Source: Candidatus Cloacimonadota bacterium (GTDB lineage Bacteria; Cloacimonadota; Cloacimonadia; JGIOTU-2). From it: a stretch of 26,766 nt of DNA. The position numbers and the translations under genes were made by a program. Location: assembly GCA_034661015.1 (NCBI GenBank), contig JAYEKN010000022.1, forward strand, positions 1-26,766. Reading direction: 5' to 3'. Below the pieces are notes generated by a model, which was not told the DNA's origin, did no database searches, and was given only the letters and a program-made list of their open reading frames with translations. Every line of letters begins with the position of its first letter. Positions within the stretch are counted from its first letter, which is position 1. This document shows, piece after piece, positions 1-26,745 of this stretch.

Positions 1-257
1 GAAAAATAAGATTGCATTTTTCAAAGAGAATATTCTTTGTGAATTTTGGAGAGAGGAATTGAGATTGGCAAAAGAGATGAAACAATTCAGCCTTTTTGCT
101 TTTTGTTTGAATTATGATCATTTTCATCTTTTAATCAAACCTAAAAATAAAATTGCAAATTATTCTCAAATTATGCATTTTATCAAAAGACATACATCAC
201 GGAATATAAACATTATTTTGGGATATAACAAAATTGATTTGGAAAAAATGATCAATC

Positions 258-365
258 CCACCGAAAATGACATTGGAATTCCATCCACCGAAAATGACGT
301 CGGAATCTCATCCCCCGAAAACGATGTGCAAATTCCCTCCACCGAAAACGATGTCGGAATTTTAT
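258..365. repeat. Tandem array of four imperfect 27-bp repeats (ccaccgaaaatgacNNcggaatNNcat), in frame inside the transposase-remnant ORF
   Basis: Direct reading gives units at 258-284, 285-311, 312-338 and 339-365. Each unit resembles the left arm of the palindrome that follows (cccccgaaggcgacgttggcc). Confidence 0.8.
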
Positions 366-403
366 CCCCCGAAGGCGACGTTGGCCAACGTCGCCTTCGG
401 GGG
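366..403. repeat. Perfect 38-bp palindrome cccccgaaggcgacgTTGGCCAAcgtcgccttcggggg (REP-like hairpin)
   Basis: Exact inverted repeat, 19+19 nt with no loop. It lies directly 3' of the 27-bp array and is related to a second palindrome at 25699-25724 (same TTGGCCAA centre, same ggcga/tcgcc arms). Confidence 0.85.
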
Positions 404-660
404 ATGAAATTCTCTAAATTCAATCTTCATCATTCTCCTTTTGTTCTTTAATTCCCTGCATCCATTAAACCAAGGCTTCGTTATAGAAAAAGAACTTCGC
501 CCGTGCAGGCAAGGATTGAAAAGCGATTGAACAATTCATAATTCATAATTATTATTTTTATTTGTGCTTGTTAAAAAAAATGTCTGAAATGATTGACAGA
601 TTTTGCCGAATAAAATTCTTTAGAAGAAGAAAAACAAAAAATAAATATTTCGGAGGAAAT

Positions 661-2749: not shown

Positions 2750-2918
2750 AATATGAAATACACACATATCCCGACAGATGATTCGTTTCTCAACCGTCTA
2801 TTCGCCGAGTTTAAAAGGAGAATGAATCCACCAGCTGGCGGCGTTGGCTTAGAGATTGGGATTTTAAGTTCTGTCTTTAGTGTTTTTCCGTGTATTTCGA
2901 GGTAAAAAATATTTTATT

Positions 2919-4019
2919 ATGAAAAAAATTAATACTTCAAATATTTTAGCATTTTTATCAATCCTGATTCTCCTCAGTTTACCGATCGGATGCTTTGCAG
3001 ATTATTATGACGGTACAGAAGGACTGACCGGAGATGAACTGAAACAGACTTTGCACAATATTATTGATGATCATATTGAGTTCAGTTATAACGCCCTTCG
3101 AGATTACATTTTACCGAATACTGACGAAGATCCGAATAATTCAAATAATGTGATTTTGCTTTACACCGGCATTTCCATCCCAAAATCGGAATTTGGCGGA
3201 ATGGTTGACGAATGGAATCGTGAGCACGTTTGGGCGAAATCTCACGGTGATTTCGGCACTTCTCCCCCTGCCGGAACTGATGCTCATCATATAAGACCGA
3301 CAAATGTTTACATCAATTCGATGCGTGGGAATAAAGATTTCGATCTCGGCGGTTCCCCTGTTTATACGTATAACGGTTCAACTCTCGGTGGATATAGAAC
3401 CGATGAAACTTTCGAACCTTTGGATAACGTAAAAGGAGATGTGGCTCGAATGATCTTTTATATGGCTGTCCGTTACGAGGGAGATAATGGTGAGCCTGAT
3501 TTGGAAATGGTGGATTACATACCCTCGTCCCCCAATGGTGAACCATATCATGCAAGAATATCCACTCTTCTGCAATGGCATACAGACGATCCCGTGGATG
3601 AATGGGAGGAAAGTCGAAATGATAAAATCTATGAAAACTGGCAAGAAAACAGAAATCCATTTATTGACCACCCGGAATTTGCGGATTTGATCTGGAATTA
3701 TGCGACAATTGATGAAAATTATACAGAAAAATTGCAGATAAAAATTTTCCCAAATCCCTTTAATATATCCGAATCAAATTACCTAAATATCTCATTTTCC
3801 ACAACTCAACAAATTCAAAATATTGTCATTAGTATTTTTAATGTAAAAGGTGAGAAAATTTTTACAATGAACATACAAAACGCAAGTTCCACTCAACACA
3901 TATTTAATTGGAATGGACGCAATGGCAAAAATAGATCCGTAACTTCGGGTGTGTATTTTATAAAATTTCAACTGAATGATGATAAACATACCGTGAGAAA
4001 AATTTTGTTGATTAAATAA
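2919..4019 (+). CDS. Extracellular Endonuclease-I family (EndA/Vvn-like, PF04231) nuclease with a T9SS C-terminal sorting domain
   Basis: ATG at 2919 is in frame with the listed GTG at 2880 and begins the signal peptide MKKINTSNILAFLSILILLSLPIGCFA. Endonuclease-I blocks are present: EWNREHVWAKSHG, DAHHIRPTNVYINSMRGNKDFD, GDVARMIFYMAVRY and NRNPFIDHPE. The C-terminal KIFPNPFNISESNYLNISF...GVYFIKFQLNDDKHTVRKILLIK is a T9SS C-terminal domain. Confidence 0.8.
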   Translation: MKKINTSNILAFLSILILLSLPIGCFADYYDGTEGLTGDELKQTLHNIIDDHIEFSYNALRDYILPNTDEDPNNSNNVILLYTGISIPKSEFGGMVDEWNREHVWAKSHGDFGTSPPAGTDAHHIRPTNVYINSMRGNKDFDLGGSPVYTYNGSTLGGYRTDETFEPLDNVKGDVARMIFYMAVRYEGDNGEPDLEMVDYIPSSPNGEPYHARISTLLQWHTDDPVDEWEESRNDKIYENWQENRNPFIDHPEFADLIWNYATIDENYTEKLQIKIFPNPFNISESNYLNISFSTTQQIQNIVISIFNVKGEKIFTMNIQNASSTQHIFNWNGRNGKNRSVTSGVYFIKFQLNDDKHTVRKILLIK

Positions 4020-10005: not shown

Positions 10006-10021
10006 AGCGTTATATTTGTGA

Positions 10022-10078
10022 GTTGGAAAATCTTAAGTCAAGTTCAAAAAAACGGAATTTAACTCAAGATTTTCCAAC
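10022..10078 (-). terminator. Long hairpin (17-bp stem with one G-U) downstream of the rlmD stop; possible terminator with a weak U-tract
   Basis: gttggaaaatcttaagt...acttgagattttccaac (reverse complements). It lies 30 nt after the rlmD stop codon. There is no clean T-run on either side, so terminator function is uncertain. Confidence 0.4.
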
Positions 10079-10108
10079 TTCTCGAACGATACTTATTTTC
10101 AAAAAACC

Positions 10109-19529: not shown

Positions 19530-22500
19530 TTGATTAGACGATTTCAATTAGCATTATTTTTGGGATTTATTGGTTTAGTCACCACTATTGTGGCTAAACC
19601 AATTTTTATAACAAATTCCCAATCTTCAAACCTATCCATTAATTTCACCCTTGGAAAATATAGCCTCCACAATTCCGATCAATTTTCCTTCATCGATGCC
19701 AAACATCTAAGTTTTACCGATATTTCAGGAGAAGCAAGAATTCCTCTATATTCTTTTCTCGTTGGAATTCCGCAAGAGGGTCAACTTAAATATAAAATTG
19801 AAAATCAAAGATATGTACAAAAGCATTTACAATATCCTCTCGCTCCCTGCCCCAAATACATAGAATCTGACACAGACGAAACCCACCGAGCAGTTTTTGA
19901 GATCAATCCGAAAATTTACCGCAAATCTCTCAATACAAAATTGATTACCTTGTCAGACCCTTTCATATGGAGGAATCAGCGAGTTGTTCGAGTTACAATA
20001 TGTCCTTTTCAAATTGAAAATCAAATGGTTACAGTAACTGAAAATTTTGATATTAATTTCGATATTACGGGAAACACTTTTTACAGAAAAGAATTTGCAG
20101 ATAAATATTTTCGGAGCGTTTACGAAAATTCCATAATAAACTTTGACGTAGCAAAATATTGGAGTGTGCCTCAAACCAGACCTCAACCGGAAAATCCATT
20201 TGAAATTGCTGATAGATGGTTTAAAATCCCTATTTCACAAGATGGGATTTACAAAATTACCAAATCAGAGCTGTCTGAAATTGGGATTGATGTATCAAAC
20301 CTTAATCCAGAATCCATAAAAATCTTTAATGGCAGCGGACGCTCATTAGATAGAGATGCTCCAACTGATATTCCGACTTTTGAAGAAATTCCGGTTTTTA
20401 TTAATGATAATGGTTCTGATTTTTCCATTTATTTTTATGCCAGAGATACAGATGGTTTTGAAATGAATCAGGAATATGGGCAATATTTCAATCCATATAC
20501 ACCCGATAATATTTATTGGTTAACTTACAATACCGTTCTTCTAAGAAAAAACAAAAATCACAAACCCCATTTTCCATCCGGATTTTCAAAACGAGAAGAA
20601 ATAAATACTTTCGCCTTTAAAAATCACTTGGAAGAAGAGAAAACCAGAATTGCCAATAAAAAACCGTATGAATTGATAAAGTGGGTATGGTCAAATTGCG
20701 GAGACGTGGTGAATTTCTCTAAAGAATTCAATATTAATGTTGAGAATTTGGATTCGGAATACGATCAAAAAATTTCCGTTAATCTTGTTTCAAGTTCGTA
20801 CGGTAGCAATGATGATTTGGCTGTATATCTGAACAATCAACTTGTTGGCACATCCAATGTTTACAATGGCACCCACATTTTCAGCGGAGACATTTTTGAA
20901 AACGGGACAAATCAATTGAGGATAGAAATTCATCCTCCTGCGGGTATCGCTCGTCTTGGCTTGAATTATATCGAAATTGAATATCAAAAATATCTTAAGT
21001 TGCTGGACAATAACTTAAAATTTTCTCCTCCTGAAGATAGTACAACTTATACTTATCACATCCGGAATGTTGATAATGATAATTTGCAATTATTAAAAAT
21101 TAATAATTTTTACGATATAGAAAAAATTTCTGAGTACGATTACAACTCGTCAACTAAAGTTTTAACATTTTCTGATTATGCCGAAAATACCGATATTCAA
21201 TATTTAATTGCTGAAGAAGACGGATTTATTACAACCGATGGGATCGTGGAAAAATTCAAACCGTCTGTGTATCTTTCATCCTGGAATAATGAGAATGGAA
21301 TTGTTTCGGAGTTTGAAGAAAACAGTTGGTTGCGGGATTCAAATACTTTGCAGAATATTGATTATATTATCATCTCCCCAAATTCCGACGATTTTTTTGA
21401 AAAACTAAAAGATATTGCCACAATGCACAGTCAGCACGATTCTATGCGAGTCCTTTTGGTTAAATTAGACGATATTTATGATGAATTTTCATGGGGATTG
21501 CCGGATGTAGTTGCCATCCAATTGTTTTTGAAATACGCTAAGAATTACTATTCCCAGGATCCGGCACACATTGTTAGTTATGCTCTTCTCGGTGGTGACG
21601 GGACGAATGATTATCGCAACTATGAATCTATTACAGGTGATAAAAACAAAATACCACCGTTTTTAAAGGGTGAAACGTACACGAGCGCTTCCGATGATTA
21701 TTTTGGAATGTTTACCCAAAACACACATCCGGAAATGATGATCGGCAGGCTTCCGTGCCAAACCTATCGGGAACTCGAAACTGTTGTGAATAAAACAACA
21801 AATTATGTAATGAATCCAAACTATGGTTTTTGGCGAAGCAATGTCATCCTAAATCCTGATGATTTTCTAAAAGAAGGGGATCTCTGGGATGAACCGATAC
21901 ATACCCGTACTCTTGAAGAAAGTTGTGCGGTTTATATTCGAGAATATGTTAACTTGATAAAATTGTATTCGTGCGATTATCCCTTTGACGAATCCTTAAA
22001 TAAACCGGAAGTAACCAAAGATATAATAAAATACATCAACAACGGAGCTTCCATATATTTTTATGCGGGTCATGGAGCATATTATGTGCTTGGAGATGAA
22101 GATTATTTCCGGGCATCACGAGACATTCCAAAATTAACAAACATTGATAAATTAACTTTCTTTATCGCTTCTTCATGTAGTGTGGGTGAATTTGATCCGA
22201 ACTGCTTTCAATCAATGGCTGAATTGGTGGTTAGTTCCCAAAATGGCGGTGCAGTAGCCTCTGTGGCTGCAACGAGAGGAACCAATCATGGTTTTTGCCG
22301 TAAAGTTGTCAAATTTCTTTCCTTACATGCAAGCACCAATGCCACCATCGGGCAAGGGGTACTAATTGCAAAATCAGGCTCAGTCGTTTCCCGCAATCAT
22401 CCCCTATATGTTTTATTCGGAGATCCAGCAATTCAACTTGCAATTCCTCCGATTTCCGGTCAAATAACAATTCCCGAAAATTTTCCTGATTCTATCAAAA

Positions 22501-25680: not shown

Positions 25681-25698
25681 ACGAAGGCGAAATTGGCA

Positions 25699-25724
25699 AA
25701 GGCGAAATTGGCCAATTTCGCCTT
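25699..25724. repeat. Perfect 26-bp palindrome aaggcgaaaTTGGCCAAtttcgcctt (REP-like), preceded by a direct partial copy gaaggcgaaattggc
   Basis: It shares the centre TTGGCCAA and the arms ggcga/tcgcc with the 38-bp palindrome at 366-403. Confidence 0.8.
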
Positions 25725-25745
25725 CAACAACAACAACAACAACAA
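25725..25745. repeat. (CAA)7 microsatellite, 38 nt upstream of the SPFH-gene start
   Basis: caacaacaacaacaacaacaa followed by catcgccaacaacc. It is intergenic if the ATG at 25783 with its RBS is the true start. Confidence 0.8.
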
Positions 25746-25782
25746 CATCGCCAACAACCAATTTCTCGGAAAGGAGAAAAAA

Positions 25783-26688
25783 ATGAGTATGATAATAATT
25801 ATAATAATCCTGATTGCATTGTACACACAGGCAAAACCTTTGTTTCATGACAAAGCAAAATTAGCACGTTTTGCAATTATCCTGCTGATTCTGATAGGTA
25901 TTTTCGCCCAAACGATTAAAATCGTTCAACCCGGTCACATCAAGCTTCAAGTTCTTTTTGGTAAAGTCCAAAACCGCGTTCTTCATAGTGGTTTAAATTT
26001 TGTTAATCCCCTTGTAAATTTAGTTGATATGAGCGTGCGAACTCAGGAATACACAATGAGTTCTGGTCGCTACGAGGGAAGTGTTTCCGGAGATGATGCC
26101 ATAAAAGCACTAACTTCCGATGGTATTCTACTCCCAATGGACATCACTTGCCTTTTTCATTTAATCCCCAAAGATGCTCCGGAAGTGTACACAAAGCTTG
26201 GTGTAAATTATGAATCCAAAATTATTCGTCCGACTCTAAAAACCGCTATTAGAACAGTAATTAGTAACTACCCAATGGAAGAAATCTATTCTTCCAAAAG
26301 AGATTCCATTGCTTTTGAGATGAAAGATCGTGCCTTTACAGCTTTGAATAAAAGGGGAATCTTTGTTGAAGACCTGCTTTTGAGAAACATTAATTTGCCA
26401 AAACAAATCGAGCAGGCAATAAATGATAAGAAAACCGAACAGCAAAAATTCCAAAAAATGGTTTATACCCTCAAAAAAGAAGGGAAAGAAAAGGAGAGAA
26501 AAATCATCGAAGCACAGGGAATCAAAATTGCTAATGAAACTATCGCTAAAGGACTTACCGAAAAATATTTACAATGGTATAGGATTGATATGATGAAAGA
26601 ATTGATTGGCAGTCCAAACAACACCATCATTTTCATTCCAACCGGTGAAGACATCTCACCCATTATCAATGCAAATATGGGTAATTAA
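25783..26688 (+). CDS. SPFH/Band-7 (prohibitin/HflC-like) membrane protein
   Basis: RBS aaggag lies before ATG 25783. N-terminal TM; SPFH core IKIVQPGHIKLQVLFGKVQNRVLHSGLNFVNPLV; C-terminal coiled-coil region rich in E/K. Confidence 0.75.
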   Translation: MSMIIIIIILIALYTQAKPLFHDKAKLARFAIILLILIGIFAQTIKIVQPGHIKLQVLFGKVQNRVLHSGLNFVNPLVNLVDMSVRTQEYTMSSGRYEGSVSGDDAIKALTSDGILLPMDITCLFHLIPKDAPEVYTKLGVNYESKIIRPTLKTAIRTVISNYPMEEIYSSKRDSIAFEMKDRAFTALNKRGIFVEDLLLRNINLPKQIEQAINDKKTEQQKFQKMVYTLKKEGKEKERKIIEAQGIKIANETIAKGLTEKYLQWYRIDMMKELIGSPNNTIIFIPTGEDISPIINANMGN

Positions 26689-26700
26689 TTTAGAAGAAAA

Positions 26701-26745
26701 CTTGAGTCAATTCACCTTTTGTTGGATTGACTTGAGTTTTCTATT
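26701..26745 (+). terminator. Rho-independent terminator: 11-bp perfect stem cttgagtcaat/attgacttgag followed by TTTTCTATTT
   Basis: It begins 13 nt after the SPFH-gene stop codon. The loop is 14 nt. Confidence 0.6.

Follow-up and report, generated by a model that had tools for sequence, protein, structure and literature searches.

What kind of gene carries an in-frame array of 27-bp repeats ending in a perfect palindrome, and does the palindrome matter as protein or as DNA? The question is raised by the left end of contig JAYEKN010000022.1 (assembly GCA_034661015.1), part of a metagenome-assembled genome (MAG) of a Candidatus Cloacimonadota bacterium; its entire 26,766 bp were analysed and are hereafter called the window. 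An initial annotation, made from the letters alone, had proposed that the first open reading frame (ORF) is a decayed REP-associated tyrosine transposase (RAYT; REP, repetitive extragenic palindrome) accompanied by the REP-like palindrome that is cognate to it, a REP half-site being the source of the repeats. The results described below support this proposal, and we consider, with a probability of about 0.8, that positions 2-451 of the window are a dead RAYT copy that holds, in frame, its cognate 'double-foot' REP (the tetranucleotide GAAG on one side and CTTC on the other) together with decayed duplications of the REP's left arm.

Frame 2 of the forward strand is open from base 2 up to the stop codon, i.e., over 149 codons, its 5' side being cut by the left contig end, and the product is identical to an NCBI entry named 'transposase, partial [Candidatus Cloacimonadota bacterium]'. 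It matches positions 18-81 of the 121-position Pfam profile PF01797 (Y1_Tnp; E=3e-7, 31 bits, gathering cut-off 23 bits), and scores higher on NCBIfam REP_Tyr_transpos (E=3e-9, 36.8 bits) than on the IS200 model (0.0015, 18.8 bits), an order repeated by full-length homologues, which reach 69-79.8 bits on the former and 18.7 on the latter. A Foldseek search with the AlphaFold2 model of the homologue P0005 (mean predicted local distance difference test, pLDDT, 84.9) returned 4er8_A, the E. coli RAYT with a REP hairpin, as top PDB match (E=7e-7, ~15% identity), with the ISDra2 and IS608 transposases ranking below it, and 4ER8 was also the sole match when a profile of our alignment A1 was compared with the PDB, the segments WQ..F..H.IR and H..Y...N..KH being aligned. 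By sequence and predicted fold the family is closer to RAYTs than to IS200 transposases, and the initial description of the ORF as a Y1/HUH protein nearest to RAYTs holds. What the window copy lacks is β4 and the catalytic-tyrosine helix, i.e., the whole C-terminal half, and its homology breaks off immediately 3' of the palindrome. Downstream of that point, tblastn with five homologues as queries found no trace of WQKSFHDH or H..Y...N..KH, and local DNA alignment of 404-560 with the C-terminal half and 3' flank of eight close loci stayed at background (z <= 1.1); given these two nulls, a likeness of 'MKFSKF/NLHHSPF' to EFDKI/NDFHHPKF in a MAFFT alignment was rejected as a remnant of the missing half, not being significant. 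Exact-product look-ups for independent contigs with the same junction, made with the downstream gene and with the window ORF, returned no record. As the tyrosine half is missing, the window copy is a remnant and not a functional member of the Y1 group, a pseudogene whose sequence predicts that it is unable to be catalytically active. The features of this region, and of a second REP near the other end of the window, are collected in the table.

Table. Coordinates of the RAYT remnant, its repeats and the REP copies in the 26,766-bp window
Feature	Position	Strand	Basis or remark
RAYT (TnpA_REP-like Y1/HUH transposase) ORF, 3' part	2..451	+	Translation, Pfam, NCBIfam; stop codon 449-451
HUH motif codons (His-Phe-His)	119..127	+	Translation; H61/F62/H63 do not vary in alignment A1
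Four tandem 27-bp units	258-284, 285-311, 312-338, 339-365	+	Tandem Repeats Finder and repeat-family search
Extended palindrome, 56 bp, 28-nt arms with one mismatch	357..412 (arms 357-384 / 385-412)	.	Perfect 38-bp core 366-403
28-nt 'double-foot' REP core, GAAG-GCG-ACGTTGGCCAACGT-CGC-CTTC	371-398	.	Translated EGDVGQRRLR
Second REP, intergenic, 3 nt past the stop of a B12-binding mutase subunit gene	25683..25727	.	Sequence search

Both the four units and the perfect 38-bp palindrome of the initial annotation are present. Tandem Repeats Finder places 4.6 copies of a 27-bp period at 258-381 (75% matches, score 122), dinucleotide shuffles of the window matched neither the palindrome nor the repeat unit, and as single-stranded DNA the segment 250-420 folds at -37.5 kcal/mol (z = -5.75), with 0/200 shuffles as good. 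In each unit the REP left arm (CCNCCGAARRYGAYRTYGG), in an A/T-decayed version, is joined to 8 further nt, and each encodes a 9-residue repeat (TENDIGIPS and similar), while the partial fifth unit of the array is the left arm of the palindrome itself; the units are in-frame duplications of this arm that have since decayed towards A/T. On the other side, the palindrome's right flank repeats the window gene's own left flank in inverted form, since 404-412 is complementary at 8/9 positions to the gene-specific 357-365. This argues that the right flank belongs to the window copy, and would point to a palindrome-mediated rearrangement.

How much of this arrangement is native to the gene, and how much is decay, can be read from its relatives. 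A protein search returned 51 of them, mostly 190-256 aa long, and in all full-length ones the HUH half is followed by a variable insert and this by a conserved C-terminal half (EFDKI..., KFKWQKSFHDHIIR, HWNYTMYNFLKH; tyrosine helix H174..Y177...N181..K184-H185), the last being the part that is absent from the window copy. Their inserts hold EGDxGQxRLR or an equivalent, i.e., the translation of the palindrome, often preceded by tandem EGDVG-like units of lineage-specific length. A genome scan extended the family to 80 loci in Cloacimonadota, many Patescibacteria lineages, Margulisbacteria and Spirochaetes, and taking the best palindrome between HUH and WQKSF in the 55 intact genes (those with an uninterrupted ORF over this interval), a zero-loop, usually perfect palindrome of the general form GAAGGCG-N14-CGCCTTC was found in 47; relatives without an internal palindrome are L056, L064, L066, L071, L072 and L074. 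HUH and W lie 45 to 139 aa apart in the listed genes (59-139 where the internal palindrome is present), and the N- and C-terminal halves share a frame in 73/75 loci, at spacings of 16 to 331 nt. Given that HUH half, repeats with palindrome, and tyrosine half follow each other in one frame in the homologues, the array is native to the variable linker of the family. Thus, the initial annotation was right in noting that the tyrosine region is missing, but the array does not stand in its place, as intact homologues carry both, and the window copy lost its C-terminal half separately, by a truncation directly after the palindrome. The in-frame periodicity of the repeat peptide, also noted there, exists because of selection for read-through. 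In the P0005 model the left-arm-repeat segment (residues 107-119) falls below a pLDDT of 50 and lies between two helices, off the conserved core; the REP site is a hypervariable, predicted-disordered linker on the surface, with the HUH half on one side and the tyrosine half on the other. Decay is seen in other homologues as well: L096 is a decayed copy that retains its REP, P0018 is decayed and P0023 frameshifted.

The palindrome is not confined to the coding frame, nor is it unique; uniqueness would, by the initial annotation's own terms, have counted against it. In homologous loci the element often lies upstream and downstream of the gene too, and the REPtron layout, i.e., a gene flanked by its cognate repeats, is seen at L017, L020, L027, L030, L037, L038, L045, L054 and L055. 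The same variant recurs upstream, inside and downstream of the gene at L020, L027, L030 (18/402/738), L037, L038, L054 (335/813/1159) and L055, and upper stems differ by 1.4 within a locus vs 3.7 between loci (permutation p = 0.0007). In the complete Peregrinibacteria genome CP064978.1 two paralogues (L037 and L038) have different upper stems, GAGGATAATTATCCTC and GCGAATGATCATTCGC, and each variant recurs both within its own gene and next to it. Scanning metagenomes for GAAGGCGANNTTGGCCAANNTCGCCTTC gave 43 contigs, 13 of them with the element inside a RAYT gene; on the other 30 no RAYT was detected, and the element is intergenic or within long unrelated ORFs. The window holds a copy of its own outside the RAYT remnant, in which the duplicate of the left arm, GAAGGCGAAATTGGC (25683-25697), stands before the palindrome, AAAGGCGAAATTGG joined to CCAATTTCGCCTTC (25698-25725), with an upper stem of GAAATTGG vs GACGTTGG in the copy at 371-398. 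Here the arm duplication is non-coding, and its 15-16-nt spacing is not a multiple of 3. Outward duplications of this kind are recurrent, being present in 24/108 REP copies (11 left-arm duplications upstream and 13 right-arm duplications downstream, against 1 and 0 in wrong-side controls), and the 27-bp units of the window are their in-frame, A/T-decayed form. Directly 3' of the intergenic REP stand seven CAA/AAC triplets (25683-25750 for both together), and a mechanically called ORF at 25693-26688 reads through REP and triplets; the true start of this SPFH-like gene is probably the ATG near 25785.

Several observations on dispersed copies are worth recording in their own right. At L002 (Candidatus Tenebribacter mawsonii, JAVCCD010000250.1, 2880-5300) an intact RAYT gene has a cas3-like gene on one side and cas1-cas2-cas4 on the other, and at least seven REP copies surround it within the CRISPR-cas locus, two of them in N-terminal extensions of the mechanical cas2 and cas4 ORFs, where they give the peptides EGDVCQRRLH and ESDNGNCRLQ. 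Many dispersed metagenomic copies (e.g., those of L090, L097, L099, L100, L104/L113) have extra locus-specific and perfectly complementary flanks beyond the 28-nt core, e.g., cccact-core-agtggg and T8-core-A9, as if the palindromes had grown outward by copying one flank onto the other; some of these would work as bidirectional terminators. No Rfam family came near its gathering threshold. We also considered a phage-borne element, and rejected it, as a scan of viral_contigs with the degenerate core gave more than 120 matches of which one had a palindromic interior, i.e., chance matches.

Is it the peptide or the DNA that is kept? Among the internal elements the palindrome is read in three phases (39, 6 and 2 genes), and the resulting peptides are EGDxGQxRLR in Cloacimonadota, KARSRDLAF in a Peribacteria/Gracilibacteria clade and RRRGCASPPS at one Margulisbacteria locus. 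For covariation, 42 distinct internal elements were aligned on their centre and compared with 500 shuffles. Paired cells amount to 87.8% vs 68.7% in the shuffled sets, and double-sided changes to 144 cells vs 46 expected, with 0/500 shuffles reaching the observed value in either case, while slid registers drop to 32-44% paired. A single G-U intermediate was counted in the 28-nt core, and 41/42 sequences keep the central 4 nt self-complementary. Strict Watson-Crick covariation, together with reading in all three frames, thus indicates, as far as sequence comparison goes, that constraint acts on the DNA and not on the peptide. A double-stranded DNA operator for a dimeric protein was considered as the object of this constraint and set aside, as it leaves the perfect self-complementarity of the variable inner 14 bp unexplained.

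We return to the window copy as a dead RAYT with its cognate REP. The REP of this lineage is a perfectly symmetrical element of 28 nt (GAAG, a GCG stem base, a variable upper stem, CGC, CTTC), placed in the gene flanks as well as in frame inside the linker of the ORF. If E. coli TnpA_REP and IS608 TnpA are a guide, the intact enzyme would act as a dimer on single-stranded DNA, where it would bind the hairpin of the REP, recognise the four nucleotides of its foot, and cleave and rejoin close by, whereby REPs could spread through the genome. The window copy would then most likely have been truncated by a palindrome-mediated rearrangement, either a REP-to-REP deletion or a fold-back copying error. 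A similar remnant is L115 (SDBT01803014.1, minus strand, 820-220), whose N-terminal half is bounded by an 82-bp direct repeat and whose C-terminal half is absent; the repeat consists of the REP plus ~25 nt of coding flank on each side; one copy precedes the RAYT start and the other, 526 bp away, occupies the internal site, so that L115 looks like the product of a REP-bounded duplication or rearrangement.

A number of points weigh against this account. The equivalog cut-off of REP_Tyr_transpos is 80 bits, and the best homologue stops at 79.8, the others at 69-71 and the window fragment at 36.8. The foot, in the window and in most relatives, is GAAG (CTTC on the other side) and not the GT[AG]G of canonical REPs; a GTAG foot occurs in a few relatives (L007, L027, L040, L063), with GTAGGCG...CGCCTAC in L027, L040 and L063. 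Two REP copies in 26.7 kb are a low density. The position of the insert also appears to differ from that in TnpA_REP subclass 2.4, i.e., Group 4 of the RAYTs of Bertels et al. 2017 (Quentin et al. 2018, PMC6006769), the published class to which the arrangement is most readily likened. There the insert was placed between β3 and αC (PMC6006769), whereas in our family it appears to follow the canonical post-HUH helix (YSQIMHFIKRHTSRNIN), which precedes the REP in the Pfam, NCBIfam and PDB-profile alignments and so puts the insert between αC and β4; a second helix (121-145 in P0005) also aligns weakly to the E. coli αC and makes the helix assignment ambiguous. The mechanism of the truncation, moreover, is one that we infer. 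Finally, the truncation could be an artefact of assembly, in which the N-terminal half of an intact RAYT gene was joined to the flank of another REP copy through the shared 38-bp palindrome. The element is indeed repeated, the window gene lies at a contig end, and many homologous contigs break in the REP/repeat region (L019, L035, L043, L060, L061, L065, L067, L070, L073); but the 9 nt right of the palindrome are complementary at 8/9 positions to the 9 nt left of it, for which we estimate a chance of ~1e-4, a fold-back artefact would be expected as a long perfect reverse complement and not as 9 nt with a mismatch, and truncated copies stand mid-contig in independent assemblies (L115, L096). 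We hold such an artefact to be improbable.

A different question is whether the internal REP is more than a neutral passenger in a permissive linker, which is how it is seen in the literature. It might be kept as a cis-acting site, with the RAYT using it to act on its own gene or transcript; although we find this unlikely, it is the alternative that we would take most seriously. Possible roles include autoregulation, a self-limiting cleavage that leaves copies with the N-terminal half alone, such as that in the window, and a nick-and-copy 'hairpin transfer' that keeps the arms identical. The internal palindrome is nearly always perfect in the 47/55 intact genes that have it, across several phyla; internal and flanking copies share one upper-stem variant per locus and the paralogues L037 and L038 differ; strict Watson-Crick pairing includes the centre, for which a simple hairpin has no need; and copies truncated at or just after the REP recur (the window, L115, L096). 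Against this stand the relatives that do without an internal palindrome, the insertion of the element in unrelated ORFs, and its location in a predicted disordered surface linker where insertions should be neutral, in keeping with the little protein impact that Quentin et al. see for such insertions (PMC6006769), and perfection and locus-specific identity would equally follow from recent insertion or from gene conversion by neighbouring copies. Its more specific form, a rolling-hairpin-like self-site at which the enzyme nicks the foot and copies one arm from the other, with each paralogue carrying its own upper-stem variant before, within and after its gene, we regard as somewhat less likely again. 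If true, this copying would yield the perfect centre, the extended flanks, the outward arm duplications and, occasionally, a gene cut as in the window.

That the palindrome acts within the mRNA seems to us quite improbable, whether as a hairpin that stabilises or attenuates the transcript, as a place where ribosomes pause or as an RNase target. Part of the literature does describe E. coli REPs as acting in transcripts, the hairpin is very stable, and the upstream left-arm copies allow alternative pairing (e.g., 303-327 with 388-412, at 84% complementarity). Nevertheless, the single G-U pair among the 42 cores and a centre that is self-complementary although an RNA hairpin needs a loop speak against it, the element is symmetrical and has no strand preference, no T-run follows the palindrome, and the Rfam comparison gave no family near threshold. 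The last alternative, that the array codes for a functional domain of peptide repeats (for DNA binding or interaction, for example) and the palindrome is a by-product, can draw on the in-frame periodicity and on the frame preserved through the insert in 73/75 loci, yet we give it hardly any weight, seeing that one palindrome is translated in three frames into unrelated peptides, that unit length (15, 24, 27, 30 or 33 bp, from the peptide repeats) and sequence vary by lineage, that the segment is predicted to be disordered, and that identical elements and arm duplications occur in non-coding DNA.

For annotation, these results mean that the window gene is a RAYT pseudogene fragment, that GC-rich palindromes in this AT-rich genome are REP-type repeats, and that EGDVGQRRLR-like peptides in the 'transposases' of Cloacimonadota and Patescibacteria are translated REPs and not protein motifs. 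The window copy is inactive and offers no new mechanism by itself, while the family provides comparative material on how Y1 enzymes read the foot and stem of a hairpin, with its three frames, Watson-Crick covariation and paralogue-specific stems. REP-type repeats probably also cause contig breaks: independent assemblies often end within or beside the REP and repeat region, and L057 has a scaffold gap inside it. Elsewhere in the window, AT-rich inverted repeats unrelated to the REP family lie at 2712-2743, 10021-10079, 19569-19603 and 26695-26742 and may be terminators, the first of them ~260 nt downstream of the first secreted-protein gene. The genes at 661-2451 and 2880-4019, downstream of the RAYT remnant, encode products with similar C-terminal segments (...GIYFYKIETAQKTFQSKMILMR and ...SGVYFIKFQLNDDKHTVRKILLIK), which we take to resemble type IX secretion sorting domains; such domains are typical of Cloacimonadota surface proteins.

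Among known systems, the TnpA transposases of the IS200/IS605 group (IS608, ISDra2) share the Y1 HUH fold and subterminal hairpins on both sides of the gene, but the IS200 model scores far below the RAYT model, the hairpins of the present family are formed by identical, symmetrical palindromes, which are found at a distance from transposase genes as well, and no tnpB partner was seen among the ORFs inspected in the window and at L002. E. coli TnpA_REP/RAYT with its REPs and bacterial interspersed mosaic elements (BIMEs), the best match in the PDB, is closer (PDB 4ER8; Messing et al. 2012; Ton-Hoang et al. 2012; Corneloup et al. 2021). The HUH motif, the WQ..F..H.IR strand and the H..Y...N..KH tyrosine helix are common to both, and in both the gene has its own palindromic repeats on either side, with further copies elsewhere. 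In E. coli the REPs lack symmetry, having GTAG on the 5' side alone, an imperfect stem and a real loop, and we know of no REP inside the E. coli TnpA_REP gene. Here, in contrast, the palindrome is perfect and loopless, has a foot on both sides and lies inside the ORF.

Short in-frame palindromic repeats in coding genes are also known from the Rickettsia palindromic elements (Ogata et al. 2000) and from intragenic REPs, which are found in frame in unrelated genes, are tolerated in loops and termini, and often come as dimers or clusters (Di Nocera et al. 2013, PMC3733652). The present element likewise occurs inside long unrelated ORFs. However, those repeats sit in unrelated host genes and are GTAG- or CGTC-tagged, whereas the element described here occupies its own transposase, at an insertion site common to a large gene family.

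The closest layout is that of subclass 2.4, described as having a highly variable insertion domain with short DNA repeats (Quentin et al. 2018, BMC Genomics 19:475; PMC6006769), which the structural model there makes a peripheral extension, with in-gene REPs that keep the frame besides flanking ones, and with 'double foot' REPs bearing GT[AG]G and its complement at the two ends (PMC6006769). The 28-nt perfect palindromes GTAGGGGCGAACGGCCGTTCGCCCCTAC and GTAGAGACGCAATGCATTGCGTCTCTAC of Table S1 (PMC6006769) have the same length and layout, and the same G/C-rich stem base, as the element here, GAAGGCGACGTTGGCCAACGTCGCCTTC, and both systems show a variable insert with short repeats between the HUH and Y halves and an in-frame internal REP. 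They differ in the foot (GAAG/CTTC here vs GT[AG]G/C[TC]AC), in the hosts, which are here Cloacimonadota, Patescibacteria and other uncultivated lineages, and in that the window copy is a truncated pseudogene. A profile search meant to place the family relative to cyanobacterial or Bacteroidetes members of subclass 2.4 brought up, among its best 120 matches, proteins of uncultivated lineages alone, tblastn of P0005 against PLSDB for reference RAYTs gave no match, and 'Cloacimon' does not occur in the main text or two supplementary files of Quentin et al. 2018 (PMC6006769). The arrangement is thus already published for subclass 2.4, to which our family is likened by the layout of insert and REP and not by sequence clustering; new here are the GAAG-foot variant and the host phyla, by which the in-frame-REP phenomenon of subclass 2.4 extends to at least 682 proteins in uncultivated phyla.

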